Origin: Dehalococcoidia bacterium
GTDB lineage: Bacteria > Chloroflexota > Dehalococcoidia > Bin125
Reading direction: 5' to 3'
DNA length: 64,000 bases
NCBI GenBank assembly: GCA_963663235.2
Contig: CAXXNO010000006.1
Span: 64,001-128,000 of the forward strand
Shown here: piece by piece, positions 30,991 through 37,822 of the stretch
Position numbering within the stretch: position 1 is the first letter of the stretch
Layout of the letters: each line of letters starts with the position of its first letter
Translations under genes and position numbers: made by a program
Notes under the pieces: generated by a model
Told to the model about the DNA's origin: nothing
Seen by the model: the letters and a program-made list of their open reading frames with translations, nothing else
Database searches by the model: none

Positions 30991-31178
30991 TCCCCGGCTT
31001 CCTCGACCTTGAGGACTGCCCGCCCTCGATAATTGCCGCAGACATAGCAGACGTGGTGCGCCACGGTCAGCGATCGGCAGGTGCTACAGGTGACGACCGT
31101 CGCACGGCGCTGACGCAGGTGTTGGCGGCGCAAACGCTGCCGCGTCTTGGCGTATTTCCGTTTCGGCAACGGCGCCAT
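30987..31178 (-). CDS. rpmF: 50S ribosomal protein L32
   Basis: MAPLPKRK...CSTC...HHVCYVCGNYRG from ATG 31178 with AGGAG SD. Confidence 0.93.
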   Translation of the reverse strand: MAPLPKRKYAKTRQRLRRQHLRQRRATVVTCSTCRSLTVAHHVCYVCGNYRGRAVLKVEEAGE

Positions 31179-31207
31179 TGGTGGGCTCCTCTTCTCCGCG
31201 CGCCCGT

Positions 31208-31708
31208 CTACTCCAAGTCGCCTCGCAGCGCCTTGAGCGCCTGCCAGCGGCGGTCGTCGCCGGCCTCGCGTTCCTCGCCGCGCTGGGGGGCAGCGCTGGC
31301 GACGCCCGGACAGGCCGGACCGCAGAGCGGCCGCATTGGTCGCGTCATCTCGCCATATTGGCGCACAGCTTCCGTGAGGTCGAGGATGCCTCCGACAATC
31401 GGGAAACCTTCGCGCTCCTCGGGCACCAGCACTCGCTCCCGTGTGAGCGGCTGATACTCGGGCCAGAACTCCTCGCTGAAAGCGACCTCCAGGCTCACGG
31501 GAACGGGCCGCAGGCAATCGCTGCAGCGCTCTGTGATGGTGGCTCGAAGCCGGGTGGTGGCGAGGATCGAGCCGTCGGTTCGGAGGAGGTCCACGTCGCC
31601 GCTGAGAGTTGTCGCGTGACCGTAGAAGTCGAAGGGCTCCGCAGCCAGCGCGTAGCGGCGACGGCTCCCAATCGGCTGCTGTAACAGGGTGGAGACGTTG
31701 AAGTGCAT
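31208..31708 (-). CDS. yceD: YceD/DUF177 family protein
   Basis: CSDCL, LDLTEAVRQ, PLC, DRRWQALKAL, upstream of rpmF. Confidence 0.88.
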   Translation of the reverse strand: MHFNVSTLLQQPIGSRRRYALAAEPFDFYGHATTLSGDVDLLRTDGSILATTRLRATITERCSDCLRPVPVSLEVAFSEEFWPEYQPLTRERVLVPEEREGFPIVGGILDLTEAVRQYGEMTRPMRPLCGPACPGVASAAPQRGEEREAGDDRRWQALKALRGDLE

Positions 31709-31782
31709 GCTGCTCCCGCCCGGATTGAGCGCTTGCGGGCGGCGGGTTTCACCGTATCAGAGGGGCACGGAGGGGTCGGATC

Positions 31783-31811
31783 TTGCGCCAACGAACATCG
31801 GTTCGTATGCT
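31783..31811 (+). promoter_or_regulatory. Sigma70 promoter with perfect LexA (Cheo) box in the spacer
   Basis: TTGCGC (31783) then 17 nt then TATGCT (31806). The spacer contains CGAACATCGGTTCG (31792-31805). Confidence 0.75.
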
Positions 31812-31843
31812 CCAGATACCCTAATCGAAGCGGACAAAACGGC

Positions 31844-32542
31844 GTGATCGACGTCGGTGACCTGTCTTACCTCCAAGAGATCGACCTCCAGCTGGACGTC
31901 GTGCAGGATGCACTTCGCGAAGTGGAGGCGCGCTTGGGCGGGAATTCGCTGCTGCCCGCCCTTGAGGCGGAGGCCCAGGCCCAGGCGCAGTTGTTGGACG
32001 CGGCTCGTCAGGAGCGCATAAGCGTGGAGACAACGGGCGACGACGCCCGGAGCAAGATTGAGGCCGAGGACGGGAAGCTTTACGGCGGCACCATCAAGGA
32101 TCCCCGAGAACTCCGAAACCTGCAGGAGGAGATCTTCGCGCTGCGCCGGACGCTCAAGGCGCAGGAGGACGACCTGCTGACGCGTATCGAAGAGGAGGAG
32201 GGGGCGGATGTGGCCGGAGCGCACGTGCAAGGGCTGGTGAAGGCTACGACCGTCGCCTGGGAGGCGGAGCAGCAGGAGTTAGAGAAGCGACGCGCGGAGC
32301 TGACCACCGAGGCAGCGGGCGTCCAGGCTGAGATCAAGACGCACCGCGCCGAGATCCAGCCGGAGGGGCTCGCTGCCTATGACAGCCAGCGCCGCATCAT
32401 GCCGGTCGCCATCGCGCGCGTGCAAGGAGGCGCATGCAGCGGCTGTCGGCTGACGCTGCCGATCTACGCCATCAACCGAGCGCGACGCGGGCAGGCTGCG
32501 GTGCGGTGTCCGTCCTGCCAGCGGATCCTGTACGTGGCGTAG
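31844..32542 (+). CDS. Coiled-coil + C4 zinc-ribbon protein (DUF164/HP0958/CT398-like)
   Basis: LQEIDLQLD, long coiled coil, KLYGG, CSGC...CPSCQRILY. Confidence 0.88.
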   Translation: MIDVGDLSYLQEIDLQLDVVQDALREVEARLGGNSLLPALEAEAQAQAQLLDAARQERISVETTGDDARSKIEAEDGKLYGGTIKDPRELRNLQEEIFALRRTLKAQEDDLLTRIEEEEGADVAGAHVQGLVKATTVAWEAEQQELEKRRAELTTEAAGVQAEIKTHRAEIQPEGLAAYDSQRRIMPVAIARVQGGACSGCRLTLPIYAINRARRGQAAVRCPSCQRILYVA

Positions 32543-32549
32543 AGTCACG

Positions 32550-33965
32550 ATGCACGCCGTCGGCTACTTCAGCGAGAGCCGCCCGAGCGAGCAGGCCTGC
32601 TCGCTCTCCGACCAAAACGATGCCTTCCTGGACACTTGCAGGCAACAGGGCTATGAGCCTACGGCCTCCTTTCTCGATACCGCTCTCGACGGCGACCGCC
32701 CCGGCTTTGAGCAACTCCTCAACTACCTCGGCCGGCCCGACCGCGGCTTCATCGTGGTGGTCGTTATGGCGTTCGCGCACTTGGGGGCGGCACAGATCGA
32801 AGCGGCGCGCACGTACTACCAACTGATCGCGCGCGGCGCCAAAGTGGTCAGCATCAAGGAAGGGCCGCTGGATGAGGCGCGATTGCTGGAACTCTGGGCG
32901 GCAGCGAGCCCCACGGACGCGATGCGGGAGCGGGTCCGCAATGCCATGCGCCGGCGCGCGGTATCCGGCCAGGTCCTGGGACGTCCCGCGTACGGCTATC
33001 GCGTGGGGCCGGACCGACGCCTGGAGTTGGTGGAAGAGGAAGCGGTGGTGGTGCGCCATATTTTCTCGCTGTACTTGCAGGAGGGGCTGGGAGTCCGGCG
33101 TATCGCCAAGCGACTCAACGAGGATGGCTTCCAGACCCGTCGCCGGGCCAACTGGAGCATGGTCACCATCCGCGACATCCTGCGCAATCGGGTGTACCTG
33201 GGCACCTACGCCCGCTTCGGCGTTCGAGTGCCCGGCAGTCACCCGGCGATCGTGAGCGAGGAGGATTTCCGCAAGGTCCAACAGGGGTTGGAACGCCGTC
33301 GCACGGTGGCGGCGCCCGCCACGCGCAGCAATTATCTCCTTTCGGGGCTGGCGCACTGCGATGCCTGCGGGAATCGAATGATCGGCGTTTCACGCCGCCA
33401 GCAATGGACCCGTGGCAACGGCGAGACCGTCAAGCAGACCTACCGCTATTACCAGTGCGAATCGAGAACGAATCAGTCGATGTGCGATTACCACACGCGT
33501 CGCGCCGACGAGCTGGAGGCGGAGGTGGTGGCGCACGTGACGGGGGCGGAGCCGGGCGCACGGCGGCCGTCGGTCATCAGCGCAGGCAACGCGGACGCCG
33601 TGGCGGCGGAGACGGCAACGGCGACGGCGCGCGTCCGTGGACGTCTGCGGCTTCTCGATCGACGCCTCTCCGAGCAACTCACGCGGGCGGCGGCCGGCCA
33701 GCTCTCGCGCGATCGGCTCCGCGCGATCGCCGACTCCCTGGTCGCCGAGCACCAGGATGCGGAGGAGGAGTTGCGCGGGCACCACGACCGGGCGTCGCTG
33801 CAGGTGTCGGCTATCGCCCGCCGCCAGCATCAAGAGCGGCAGGTGGAGCGCATCCGCGGCGAATGGTCTCGTCTCTCCTTTGCCGCGCGGCAGGCGATGG
33901 TGCGCGATCTCGTTGAGAAGGTCGTCGTCAGCGATGACGAGGTCACGACGGTGCTGCGCCCATGA
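32550..33965 (+). CDS. Large serine recombinase-like protein with degenerate catalytic domain
   Basis: Resolvase-like N-terminus (SLSDQ, DRPGF), recombinase domain (PAYGY, IAKRLN, ILRNRVYLG, HPAIV), zinc ribbon (LLSGLAHCDACG, YYQC), coiled coil. Confidence 0.9.
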   Translation: MHAVGYFSESRPSEQACSLSDQNDAFLDTCRQQGYEPTASFLDTALDGDRPGFEQLLNYLGRPDRGFIVVVVMAFAHLGAAQIEAARTYYQLIARGAKVVSIKEGPLDEARLLELWAAASPTDAMRERVRNAMRRRAVSGQVLGRPAYGYRVGPDRRLELVEEEAVVVRHIFSLYLQEGLGVRRIAKRLNEDGFQTRRRANWSMVTIRDILRNRVYLGTYARFGVRVPGSHPAIVSEEDFRKVQQGLERRRTVAAPATRSNYLLSGLAHCDACGNRMIGVSRRQQWTRGNGETVKQTYRYYQCESRTNQSMCDYHTRRADELEAEVVAHVTGAEPGARRPSVISAGNADAVAAETATATARVRGRLRLLDRRLSEQLTRAAAGQLSRDRLRAIADSLVAEHQDAEEELRGHHDRASLQVSAIARRQHQERQVERIRGEWSRLSFAARQAMVRDLVEKVVVSDDEVTTVLRP

Positions 33966-33975
33966 CCGCCCTCTC

Positions 33976-34389
33976 GTGCGGCTAGTCGCTTACGCGGACG
34001 GCGCCTCGCGCGGCAACCCGGGGCCGGCCGCCTATGGTGGTGCTCTCTACAGCGAAGCGGGGGTGGAAGTGCGTGCCGTGGCGCGGGCGATCGGTCGCGG
34101 GACCAACAACGATGCGGAGTATCAGGCCGCCATCGCGGTGCTCGAAGCGGCGCTGGAGATGCAGGCCACGGAGGTCGAGTTGCGCTTGGACTCGGAGTTG
34201 GTGGTGCGGCAAATCACCGGGATCTACCGGGTCCGCAGCGAACGGTTGCGCGGCTACTACGATCGGGTCTTGGCGCTCATAGAGCAACTGGAGCGTTTCC
34301 ACGTGCATCACATCCCGCGCGAGCAGAACCGCCGCGCCGACGCACTGGCGAACGGGGCGCTGGATGGCCGGCCCGCGAGCGCACCGTAG
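33976..34389 (+). CDS. rnhA: Ribonuclease HI
   Basis: YADGASRGNPG, TNNDAEY, DSELVVRQ, HIPREQNRRADALAN. Start at GTG 33976 or ATG 33934. Confidence 0.92.
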   Translation: MRLVAYADGASRGNPGPAAYGGALYSEAGVEVRAVARAIGRGTNNDAEYQAAIAVLEAALEMQATEVELRLDSELVVRQITGIYRVRSERLRGYYDRVLALIEQLERFHVHHIPREQNRRADALANGALDGRPASAP

Positions 34390-34402
34390 CGGAGCCGTAG
34401 TA
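34325..34402 (+). repeat. 78-bp direct repeat, copy 1 (3' end of rnhA)
   Basis: Matches 35799-35876 at 77/78 nt. Confidence 0.95.
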
Positions 34403-35798
34403 CGCAGCATTCCATATCGATGAGAATCGACGGCTGACAGGCCGTGCTGTTTACATCTGGACACACTGGTAACTAGGGTTTCGTCTGTCGTCCAATGAAA
34501 GGGCGTGCCAACGACTCCGTTGGCAATTGGTTGGCAACGACGTGCCTACGTCCGCGCCGGCAACGCGTCTTACCGCCGCTGGCTTCTCCGACGCGCGTGA
34601 ATGATCGCCTCTGCCTTCGTCTCTGTGGGCAGCAATCCATCGGTGCTGCAGCGGGGCTCGCGGAGTTCGTCTTCGCTGGCGTCTCCTCGCTTCGGCATGG
34701 CCGACGCTACGGTATACTCGCGCTCCCTCAGTTCTGACAGAGTCCTCTGAAGGAGACTCTCATGTCCGCCAGCGTATCTGACATCGAACTGCACGGCCCA
34801 GGCGGCGGCGCACGCCGGGGGAACAAGATCGAAGCCAAGGAGTTGTCGGCGACCTTCACGGTGACCGTGGATACCGATGGTTGCTACGCGATCTTCGTCT
34901 CCCTCTGGGAAGATGACGACAACTTGCTGTGGTTCTTGAATCCAGACGAGAAGGGCCTGGGATACGAGAAACGCAATCGAATGCCACTGCCTAACGGCGG
35001 GCGAGGCCCAGGAGTTCGAGATTGGGGCGACCGCGTCGGAGGACCCCGCCGAACCCCCGGCGCCGGACCCGGACTCCAGCGTCATCCCTCTGGCGCCGAT
35101 GAAGGGGAATTGGCCCAAGTCGGATGCGGGAGGGGAAATCGAGTTGCGCCTCGAAGTAGAGGTCAAGCTCTGCACGCCGAATTGTGGCAAGGAGTGTGAT
35201 GACTACAACTACTTTACGGATAGTTTCGGCGATCCAGTCGGCAAGGGAAGCTCGGAGCTGGTGGACATCCCTCTTCCCGGCGGCAAGGAGCCGCATGAAA
35301 TCATGAAAGAGGCCGTCAAGGCGGCTGCCCCATCGGTCATCGGCGAGTTGATGAAGTCTACCCGTTCGGAAGAAGCGACTGAGGCCGTGTCTGCAGATCT
35401 CGCGTGGAGAGAAGGCGTGTCGAAGCAATTGAGGGCCCTCCAGCGAAGCGTCCGGGCGACGGAGGAGCGCATGATCTCGGAGCGCGCGAGAGTGAAGCGC
35501 GCTCGCTCCGAACGTCGTAGGCGGAGGCCCCGTGAACGAAGCTAAGTCCGACGAGAGAGCTGCGTAGCCCACGTCGGCCAGGACCAGCGTCTAGATCCGC
35601 GCTGACAATGTCCGCAGAGTCGTAGGCCGTGGGGTGTTGCGCTACGACGAGGGGAAGAGGAAAGGGGGGTCGGAGGCCGGCTGGGGGCGCTAGGGCTTCT
35701 GGCTTCGACGTGACGGGTGGCATGGGGCTCTCCACGCTGGACCCGTTGCTGGGCCGTGTGCAGGTGCGATTGGTGTGCATCCAGACGTGCCACCCTGT
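34403..35798. mobile_element. 1.4-kb islet bounded by 78-bp direct repeats
   Basis: Flanked by the duplicated rnhA 3' end, atypical composition, no mobility gene inside. Confidence 0.65.
34762..35545 (+). pseudogene. Frameshifted hypothetical gene (islet cargo)
   Basis: AAGGAG SD and ATG 34762. Protein-like sequence continues in the +1 frame from ~34960 (DTRNAIECHCLTAGEAQEF...) to the stop at 35545. Confidence 0.55.
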
Positions 35799-35876
35799 AG
35801 AACCGCCGCGCCGACGCCCTGGCGAACGGGGCGCTGGATGGCCGGCCCGCGAGCGCACCGTAGCGGAGCCGTAGTA
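35799..35876 (+). repeat. 78-bp direct repeat, copy 2 (overlaps rnpB promoter)
   Basis: Matches 34325-34402 at 77/78 nt and runs into TAGGAT (35875-35880). Confidence 0.95.
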
Positions 35877-35886
35877 GGATCAAGAC

Positions 35887-36258
35887 GGGCCAGGTGGCCG
35901 GGTGGCTGCGGTCCTTCCGGCAGTGGAAGGGCTGAGGAAAGTCCGAGCTCCACCGAGACGGGGCGCTGGGTAACACCCAGGAGGGGCGACCCTACGGAAA
36001 GCGCCACAGAAACATACCGCCCTTCCCGAAGGGGAAGGGCAAGGGTGAAATGGTGCGGTAAGAGCGCACCAGCGGCCGGGCGACCGGCCGGCTGGGCAAG
36101 CCCCGCCCGGAGCAAGACCACGTAGGAGGGCTATGGGAGTCTCGGCCCGCCCTCGGGTAGGTCGCTTGAGGCGGCGGGTAACTGTCGTCCTAGATAGATG
36201 GCCACCCCCTGTCGCTACGGCGGCGGGGACAGAACTCGGCTTACAGGCCACCTGGCCC
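35887..36258 (+). ncRNA. rnpB: RNase P RNA (class A)
   Basis: GAGGAAAGTCC, AGCGCCACAGAAA, GGTGCGGTAAGAGCGCACC, AGAACTCGGCTTA. P1 helix GGGCCAGGTGGCC/GGCCACCTGGCCC. Confidence 0.97.
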
Positions 36259-36280
36259 ACTTCTCTTTCAGGCGAAGGCC

Positions 36281-37822
36281 GTGCCTAGGGCTGCCGTGGG
36301 CCGTGCGTTGCCCGATTTGCTGAATGCGACGCGGGTGCTGGCGGTGCATGGGCGGCCGCCGGCCCAGCCCGCGTCCCAGCTGAGCCAGGACTCGCGCGAG
36401 ATTGCTCCGGGGGCCTGCTTCGTGGCGGTGCCCGGCTTCCACGTCGACGGGCACGCGTACCTGGAGGAGGCGCTGGCGGCGGGAGCGGCGGCGGTGGTGG
36501 TGCAGGCCGATCGCCGGGCGTTGTGGGAGCCGCTCCTCGCGCGACCGCAGATCACAGTGGTCGAGGTTCCCGATACCCGCGCGGCGCTGGCGGACCTGGC
36601 CGCGGCCTTCCATGGATTTCCCGCTCGCTCGCTCACCGTGGTCGGCGTCACGGGCACCGACGGCAAGAGCACCACCAGTTATCTCATCTCCTCGATTCTC
36701 GAGGCGGCCGGAGGCCGCACCGGAATGATTAGCGGCGTGCAGTTCAAGGTCGGTGGCGAGTGGCGGATGAACGACCTCACCCAGACCAGTCCAGAGGCAC
36801 CGCTGGTGCAGGCGCTCCTGGCAGAGATGGTCGAGGCTCGTGTGACGCATGCCATCATCGAGTCGACGTCGCACGGGCTGGCGCTCCACCGGCTGGACCA
36901 CTGCGAGTACGACGTTGCGGTGTTCACCGGTCTGAGCGACGACCATTTGGATTTCCACGAAACGCGTGAGGCGTATATCGCGGCCAAGGCGGGTCTCTTT
37001 GCCGCCCTCGATCAGGCGTGCGACAAGGGCGTGCCGAAGCGCGGCGTCGTCAATGCGGACGATCCCCATGCCGGCGCGATGCAGGCGGCCACCCGAGCGT
37101 CGCTCATTCGCGTTGCTCTTGACGCGCCGGCGGTGGATGTCACCGCCACCGATCTCATGGAGGGGGCGGACGGCACGGAGTTTCTCTTGGTGACCGACGT
37201 GGGAGACGCGCGTGTCGACCTGCCGCTGCCGGGTCGGTTCAACGTGCGCAACGCCCTCGCTGCCGCGGGCGCCGGCCGTGCGCTGGGTGTTGCCCCCGAG
37301 GTGATTGCGCGCGGCCTCTCGAGCGTCGGCGGCGTGCCGGGGCGGATGGAGCGGATCGACGGCGGGCAGCCCTTTACCGTCGTCGTCGATGCGGCCGCAA
37401 CGACTGACGCGTTCCGTGTCGTGCTCGGCTCGATCAAGCCGCTCGTGACCGGGCGCCTGATCGCGGTTTTCGGCTGTGCCGGCGAGCGCGATCCCGGCCG
37501 CCGGCCGGGGATGGGCCGCGCCGCGGCGGAATACGCCGATTACACGGTGATCACGAGCGAGAATCCGCGCTCGGAAGAGCCGGGCGCCATCGTGCGGGAG
37601 ATCGCCGTGGCGATGGAGGGCGCCGGGCGCCGGACAGGCGTCGATTTTGAGGAGGAGCCCGACCGCCGGTCGGCCATCGCGCGGGCTCTGGAGTTGGCCG
37701 AAGCGAACGATTACGTCCTGATCGCCGGCAAGGGCGCCGAGCAGTCGCTCATCGTGGGCGACAGCGTGCAGCCCTGGGACGACCGCACCGTCACGCGCGA
37801 GTTGCTCGCCCAGCGTGGGTGA
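36281..37822 (+). CDS. murE: MurE-family amino acid ligase
   Basis: DSREI, VDGH, VTGTDGKSTT, STSHGL, DHLDFH, VPGRME, FGCAGERD, IAGKG. Confidence 0.88.
   Translation: MPRAAVGRALPDLLNATRVLAVHGRPPAQPASQLSQDSREIAPGACFVAVPGFHVDGHAYLEEALAAGAAAVVVQADRRALWEPLLARPQITVVEVPDTRAALADLAAAFHGFPARSLTVVGVTGTDGKSTTSYLISSILEAAGGRTGMISGVQFKVGGEWRMNDLTQTSPEAPLVQALLAEMVEARVTHAIIESTSHGLALHRLDHCEYDVAVFTGLSDDHLDFHETREAYIAAKAGLFAALDQACDKGVPKRGVVNADDPHAGAMQAATRASLIRVALDAPAVDVTATDLMEGADGTEFLLVTDVGDARVDLPLPGRFNVRNALAAAGAGRALGVAPEVIARGLSSVGGVPGRMERIDGGQPFTVVVDAAATTDAFRVVLGSIKPLVTGRLIAVFGCAGERDPGRRPGMGRAAAEYADYTVITSENPRSEEPGAIVREIAVAMEGAGRRTGVDFEEEPDRRSAIARALELAEANDYVLIAGKGAEQSLIVGDSVQPWDDRTVTRELLAQRG

Follow-up and report, generated by a model that had tools for sequence, protein, structure and literature searches.

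A large serine recombinase family without the catalytic residue set, fixed in a housekeeping operon of Dehalococcoidia

The 64,000-nucleotide stretch of DNA analysed here (the window; positions 64,001 to 128,000 of contig CAXXNO010000006.1, assembly GCA_963663235.2, from a Dehalococcoidia bacterium) encodes a relative of the large serine recombinases (LSRs) of phages, which we term LSRd (large-serine-recombinase-derived protein). LSRd belongs to a class-wide, single-copy, LSR-derived family that is devoid of the catalytic set and fixed in a housekeeping operon; its gene occupies the same position in 20/20 loci from close relatives and in 69/71 loci of a divergent, SAR202-type subgroup. The gene does not represent a prophage remnant in decay. 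We favour, with a probability of roughly 60%, the interpretation that a phage-type large serine integrase was exapted (domesticated) to give LSRd, a non-catalytic, DNA-binding host protein. Research on LSRs treats them as recombination enzymes and as tools for genome engineering.

As stated in a sequence-only reading of the same DNA, the gene is an unbroken frame of 471 codons; it has an ATG start, a TGA stop and no internal stop codon. Its product consists of a resolvase-fold N-terminal domain with helix E, a recombinase domain (RD), a zinc-ribbon domain (ZD) and a coiled-coil motif (Table 1), thereby sharing the four-part architecture and the fold of LSRs from phages and mobile elements (A118/LI Int, SPbeta SprA, Bxb1, PhiC31, TP901-1). 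The RD, the four zinc-ribbon cysteines and the coiled coil, described as intact in that reading, were all recovered from the sequence, the profile searches and the structural model. In the Pfam scan at E ≤ 0.1, PF00239 was not listed for the full-length protein; residues 1–150 alone matched it with 39.5 bits over profile positions 11–144, a stretch that leaves out the YxRxS segment. The AlphaFold2 (AF2) model, built from 72 family members, has a mean pLDDT of 84.9, with residues 1–110 mostly above 90. Top Foldseek matches in the PDB were full-length LSRs, namely the integrases of SPbeta (9dxd, E 1.3e-20), Bxb1 (9iu2, 4.7e-16), PhiC31 (9rah, 5.5e-16) and A118 (4kis, 1.3e-15); isolated catalytic domains of TP901-1 (3bvp_B), gamma-delta resolvase (1gdt_A) and Tn3 (5cy1) were matched as well. 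The A118 integrase (4kis) aligned with the family profile over residues 148–467, a span that takes in the coiled coil and the C-terminal strands, and among PHROGs LSRd was placed in phrog_95 ‘integrase’ (E 2.9e-72, residues 9–467). For the N-terminal domain, the ESM Atlas gave a features value of 0.94 and 30/30 matches within Resolvase clusters. The match to NCBIfam XisF was partial (E 5.4e-20, 71.8 bits) and below the cut-off of 375. Because the AF2 model, the Foldseek matches, the A118 profile alignment and the phrog_95 placement agree, LSRd is a complete LSR by fold and descent. The proposal that helix E is shortened was not borne out: helices span residues 109–119 and 122–139 of the model, about 31 residues in all, and the gaps of 2–4 residues before helix E are common to a canonical paralogue (par_G035). 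The RD carries a net charge of +8 and the whole protein has a pI of 9.6.

The catalytic set of LSRs, which we take to be the nucleophile Ser10 together with Arg8, Arg68 and Arg71 (gamma-delta resolvase numbering), was traced by aligning LSRd (MAFFT) with five canonical LSR paralogues encoded by related genomes (L021–L025), all reading Y-R-S followed by [D/S]-R-x-x-R. LSRd has Y6-F7-S8-E9-S10 where the canonical motif is Y-x-R-x-S, with R8 gone and S10 present, and A76-H77-L78-G79-A80 in place of D-R-L-x-R, with R68 and R71 replaced by H77 and A80. These two replacements are those given by the sequence-only reading. Other pocket residues are D43 and R50, the latter at canonical R45. The full R8/S10/R68/R71 set was thus found in all five control paralogues, not in LSRd of the window. 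An alternative register that would bring back R-x-S, R11-P12-S13, is peculiar to the window protein, with R-x-[ST] at that offset in 1/117 close members.

The same positions were followed through 117 close members of the family, 69 distant, SAR202-type members, and 105 representatives of at least 400 aa. The R8 position is occupied by Arg in 73, Ser in 34 and Thr in 10 of the close members, and by Arg in 29, Ser in 25 and other residues in 15 of the SAR202-type ones. At the nucleophile position, Ser occurs in 15/117 close members (Pro in 27, Ala in 17, others in the rest) and in 0/69 SAR202-type members, so the retention of the serine, as first read, holds for the window protein and for few of its relatives. 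Arg is present at the R68 position in 18/117 close members and at the R71 position in 26/117; in the SAR202-type set the latter is mainly Glu (25) or Asp (18), with Arg outside the eight commonest residues. All four catalytic residues together were found in none of the 117 close and none of the 69 SAR202-type members. The full set is likewise missing in 99/105 representatives, the six canonical ones being those with the weakest scores (E 1.9e-35 or weaker).

Two further features of the pocket region were observed. The R68 position is His in 67/69 SAR202-type members (L035–L105), within a conserved I-P-D-S-x-H-L-A-x-D-L-E, and His is also found there in 26/117 close members, including the window protein (H77). 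In genus g15 (L026, L027), the match of the orthologue to LSRd begins only at about residue 85 in 16/16 genomes, and the open frame is without the first strand of the N-domain.

The source genome (2.75 Mb, 92% complete) encodes one copy of LSRd and no second serine recombinase, the N-domain stretch of LSRd being the sole Resolvase match genome-wide. All 24 genomes of the same family carry one full-length orthologue (E 3.7e-118 or better, 47–63% identity). In a sample of the class Dehalococcoidia, exactly one match at E ≤ 1e-40 was found in 156/301 genomes (among them the unpublished genome G259) and in 126/223 of the high-quality subset. Presence is all-or-none by family, with 17/17, 17/17, 16/17 and 8/8 genomes in some families vs 0/12, 0/7 and 0/7 in others. 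In the phylum sample, 7/301 genomes gave a match, every one within Dehalococcoidia. Relatives retrieved by protein search are named ‘recombinase family protein [Dehalococcoidia bacterium]’ in their source. A scan of 1.84 billion representatives yielded 145 clusters at E ≤ 1e-30, and the family amounts to about 99 cluster representatives at 50% identity. The 71 loci of the SAR202-type subgroup are titled Chloroflexota, Dehalococcoidia or SAR202 except for one ‘uncultured bacterium’, and include one cultured carrier, Candidatus Lucifugimonas marina JH545. In a FastTree phylogeny of 97 rows, the 11 canonical LSRs all lie on one side of a single branch with SH-like support of 98; with its long branches and small outgroup, this topology is compatible with a single origin of the dead type. 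The single-copy, syntenic pattern fits vertical inheritance.

Every domain of LSRd is under purifying selection. Nei–Gojobori estimates from eight close pairs (dS 0.15–0.46) gave dN/dS of 0.07–0.20 overall and 0.08–0.22 for the N-domain, whose constraint is no weaker than that of the DNA-binding domains. Neutral decay, which the sequence-only reading had named as an outcome that would undo its claim, is excluded because of these values. Alignment columns conserved at ≥90% number 54/109 in the RD (residues 147–255), the most conserved part of the family, 31/80 in the zinc ribbon, 14/41 in the helix D-E region, 21/105 in the N-domain and 7/95 in the coiled coil. Of the zinc ligands, C270 is Cys in 117/117 close members and C273 and C303 each in 84/117. 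Near-invariant positions include V129, R130, A132, M133, R134, G144, R145, P146, G149 and Y150, which cover helix E and a G-R-P-x-Y-G-Y linker.

LSRd is embedded in a conserved gene neighbourhood. In the window the order is CT398-like gene, 7 nt, LSRd, 7 nt, RNase HI gene, a 1.4-kb insert and rnpB. The CT398-like protein consists of a coiled-coil hairpin and a C4 zinc ribbon (Pfam Zn_ribbon_9, 37.4 bits; CT398_CC, 30.4 bits; both above cut-offs), features shared with the CT398/HP0958 (FlgZ)/MSMEG_4306 family (DUF164, COG1579) to which it belongs. In close loci, the gene immediately upstream of LSRd is the CT398-like one in 20/20, while the RNase HI gene is downstream in 19/20 and a divergent yceD beyond in 17/20; rnpB follows in 17/19 relatives’ loci, 1–142 nt after the RNase HI gene. 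The same immediate upstream neighbour is found in 69/71 SAR202-type loci, the remaining two offering ≤140 nt and no usable upstream DNA, and the spacer is 0–6 nt in 63/69. Of these loci, 57/71 have rnpB downstream in the same orientation, <300 nt away in 41/57 and mostly without an intervening RNase HI gene, a gene missing from the locus in 70/71. LSRd is linked tightly to the CT398-like gene, less so to rnpB. Over 83 loci, the pairwise identities of the two proteins LSRd and CT398-like correlate with r = 0.94, a value inflated by kinship, and their means are 0.40 and 0.39, respectively.

A paper of 2011 (PMC3372290) describes DUF164 genes linked to rnhA and to the RNase P RNA gene in phyla other than this one; in its text as available, the word ‘recombinase’ has 0 occurrences and no LSR-like gene is mentioned between the DUF164 gene and rnpB. 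As the linkage also occurs in LSRd-negative genomes, DUF164-(rnhA)-rnpB is the older arrangement and LSRd sits within it. Gain versus loss of LSRd was traced on a FastTree phylogeny of 88 rows built from the CT398-like protein; its five LSRd-negative genomes fall in an unresolved part, where two changes are needed and the starred branches force only one. The modelled complex of LSRd with the CT398-like protein (score 0.00, mark 0.32) speaks neither for nor against binding. At the g15 loci (L026, L027), the neighbours are an opposite-strand methyltransferase/Maf-like gene and a downstream PIN-like gene, and neither a CT398-like gene nor rnpB was found nearby.

If LSRd is a non-catalytic, DNA-binding host protein, its action may be outlined as follows. 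LSRd would dimerise through helix E, which like the G-R-P-x-Y-G-Y linker is conserved. The dimer would bind duplex DNA via the RD and ZD, in the manner of LSRs on att sites, without cleavage, and two bound dimers could be bridged or paired by the coiled coil. More speculatively, LSRd could work with the CT398-like protein, as a DNA anchor coupled to the transcription machinery, the first targets to consider being the rnpB promoter or its own operon. Members of the CT398 family have been reported to bind sigma-54, and an AlphaFold3 prediction, described in a preprint (bioRxiv 10.64898/2026.07.15.738315), lays a mycobacterial homologue across the beta' subunit of RNA polymerase. We tentatively consider, while holding it doubtful, that the two proteins make up a bipartite transcription module confined to Dehalococcoidia, the marine SAR202 among them, combining att-site-like recognition of a long footprint and coiled-coil bridging with a link to RNA polymerase, and acting on the rnpB promoter or a wider regulon. 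LSRd would then be the first case of a serine integrase converted to a transcription factor devoid of catalysis.

A number of observations weigh against a non-catalytic host factor, or limit it. About half of the class genomes sampled have no match at E ≤ 1e-40, hence the gene is neither universal nor indispensable. The DUF164-(rnhA)-rnpB linkage exists without LSRd in 4/5 LSRd-negative Dehalococcoidia genomes (L107–L111), and for this reason the adjacency to rnpB may be a legacy of the insertion site rather than functional. The second and third zinc cysteines are each absent in 33/117 members. At codon 254 of one orthologue (L013, genome G001) GAG has become TAG, a nonsense codon, and another orthologue (G030:C1:1956957-1958395) is split over three reading frames; these damaged copies could be real losses or assembly errors. 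Y-x-R-x-[ST] is kept by 21/117 close members, nine of the 117 keep R8, S10 and R71 with R68 gone, and some family members may retain residual chemistry. Inverted repeats upstream of rnpB in 67 loci (140 nt scanned, arms of 9 nt, ≤1 mismatch, spacer 0–26) were scattered, with none at a consistent position. The earlier proposal of selection for DNA binding rather than recombination gains from the purifying selection, the fixed single-copy locus and the family-wide loss of the catalytic set, and falls short in that no target site was found.

LSRd might instead guard the locus against mobile elements, either by holding an att-like site upstream of rnpB or by forming inactive mixed complexes with incoming related integrases, thereby blocking integration. 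The region upstream of rnpB has indeed served as an insertion site, for LSRd itself and for the further 1.4-kb insert with its 78-nt repeats. In three DNA runs the contig with the insert is shallower than the operon contig (6.66 vs 14.8, 3 vs 13.6 and 2 vs 2.8), which hints at a polymorphic element; because of this lower depth the insert may be carried by a fraction of the population only. The surfaces by which LSRs pair, helix E and the coiled coil, are also kept in LSRd. The pattern of conservation argues the other way, with the DNA-binding domains most conserved and no sign of diversifying change, and the family is ancient and syntenic. PADLOC gave no match for LSRd, the CT398-like protein or the open reading frames (ORFs) of the insert. 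Moreover, the insert entered the site although LSRd was present, and no att-like dyad was found. LSR crossover occurs at a 2-bp core, and direct repeats of 78 nt are not a product of LSR integration, which also counts against a guard. We consider this role unlikely. A dominant-negative inhibitor of incoming integrases is also the worst fit of the three roles offered by the sequence-only reading (the others being a regulator and a nucleoid factor), because the DNA-binding domains are most conserved, the gene is ancient and syntenic, and the genome has no other serine recombinase.

An RNA-linked role, in which the substrate would be not duplex DNA but RNase P RNA or its precursor, or else RNA:DNA hybrids in concert with RNase HI, is rather improbable for LSRd. 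The protein is basic and its gene lies persistently just upstream of rnpB, with the RNase HI gene between in close relatives; but the genome has its own gene for the RNase P protein (rnpA), the DUF164-rnpB linkage predates LSRd, the RNase HI gene is absent at nearly all SAR202-type loci, and the RD and ZD bind duplex DNA in every solved LSR complex matched.

That LSRd is an active recombinase with a non-canonical site, relying for example on another nucleophile or on residues supplied by a partner, appears very unlikely. Besides Ser10 of the window protein and the members that retain Y-x-R-x-[ST], one may point to Y6, which is Tyr in 110/117 close members, and to the largely kept D36 (D in 96 and E in 21 of 117) and R45 (R in 96/117). 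No pocket position is, however, conserved family-wide as Ser, Thr or Tyr, and Y6 gives way to Phe, Leu or Val in 41/69 distant members. The g15 lineage dispenses with the first strand, the genome encodes no further serine recombinase, and the gene has a fixed position and is not flanked by an element or repeats that belong to it. A neutral relic of an old prophage integrase, retained only through its location in the operon, could account for the decayed catalytic residues and the occasional disrupted copies, but is hardly credible given dN/dS of this order in all domains, full-length open frames that persist class-wide at 35–65% identity, and a rate of evolution equal to that of the neighbour.

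Compared with the LSRs of phages, LSRd thus lacks R8, R68 and R71, its nucleophile position is unconserved in the family, and it is single-copy in a fixed housekeeping operon, outside any mobile element and with no att-like site found. Recruitment of serine recombinases to host functions is known from the Hin/Gin-type invertases, SpoIVCA and XisF, the latter two being active developmental excisases. In contrast to LSRd, which has no catalytic set, all of these stay catalytic and rearrange DNA. The nearest precedent for a regulatory role is TnpR of Tn3/gamma-delta, where a resolvase dimer beside its own gene also represses transcription; it is, however, small, active and located on a transposon, whereas LSRd is large, inactive-looking and chromosomal. 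WhiA (derived from LAGLIDADG enzymes) and TldR (derived from TnpB) lost their catalytic residues and kept the nucleic-acid-binding scaffold as vertically inherited host factors. LSRd would have followed a similar path of exaptation, although the folds are unrelated and its own regulatory role is putative. A review of mobile-element recruitment (PMC8987985), in its accessible portion, presents invertases as recruited serine recombinases and holds only catalytically active examples. In the literature searched, we found no description of an inactive or exapted, host-fixed LSR family.

If LSRd is indeed such a protein, an old, vertically inherited ‘dead integrase’ would show the scaffold at work alone, in site recognition, bridging or regulation, and a serine recombinase would join the short list of mobile-element enzymes turned host factors. 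Its carriers include the abundant and poorly understood marine SAR202, and the cultured JH545 makes the question testable. The fixed pairing may also inform the function of the CT398/DUF164 family.

Table 1 Features of the LSRd locus in the window and domains of its product
Feature	Position	Strand	Remarks
CT398/DUF164-family gene	31844..32542	+	232 aa; likely GTG start at 31844 (aligned with 18 orthologues), TAG stop at 32540-32542
LSRd gene	32550..33965	+	Residues S8, H77 and A80 of the product at the R8, R68 and R71 positions
Resolvase-fold N-terminal domain and helix E	32586..32972	+	Residues 13-141; PF00239, E 7.7e-10; catalytic pocket degenerate
RD	33033..33299	+	Residues 162-250; PF07508, E 1.8e-23, 83.1 bits vs cut-off 21.1
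ZD	33336..33539	+	Residues 263-330; PF13408 (Zn_ribbon_recom), E 5.7e-12; C270, C273, C303, C312
Coiled-coil motif	33591..33800	+	Predicted helices 348-381 and 387-417 (AF2 model)
RNase HI gene	33973..34389	+	GTG start; Pfam RVT_3 and RNase_H
Direct repeats, 78 nt	34325-34402 and 35799-35876		77/78 identical; a duplication of the RNase HI gene 3' end and of the region upstream of rnpB
Insert	34403-35798		1.4 kb, lower G+C, between the direct repeats
rnpB	35890..36259	+	RNase P RNA, bacterial class A; Rfam RF00010, 298.6 bits

No sigma-70-type promoter was identified in a scan of 31000–36500. By eye, the spacers 5' of rnpB (35860–35890 in the window; loci L002–L104) contain a -10-like hexamer 7–10 nt before the 5' end of the RNA, which is TAGGAT in the window and TATCAT, TACCAT, TATTCT or TACACT elsewhere. 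From these sequences rnpB seems to have its own promoter, the upstream part of which would overlap the end of the preceding gene. In the single RNA run (X20), contigs cover only rnpB and two short segments of the insert, not LSRd; the run is uninformative on expression. The idea that LSRd takes the place of the RNase P protein was rejected, rnpA being present in the genome (PF00825, 90.4 bits).

The insert displaces rnpB from the RNase HI gene, its insertion point lying just before the -10-like hexamer of rnpB. It occurs once in the source genome and has no integrase of its own. Its overlapping ORFs (34762..35199 and 35099..35545), for which neither Pfam nor PHROG matches were obtained, represent a single gene interrupted by a 2-nt difference: in each of the three DNA runs the contigs have two additional bases after 34953/34954, which join the frames. 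An intact form of 261 aa with 99% identity (P0269) was the sole match in the protein collection. Two RNA-run contigs match the insert exactly at 35246–35409 and 35487–35665.

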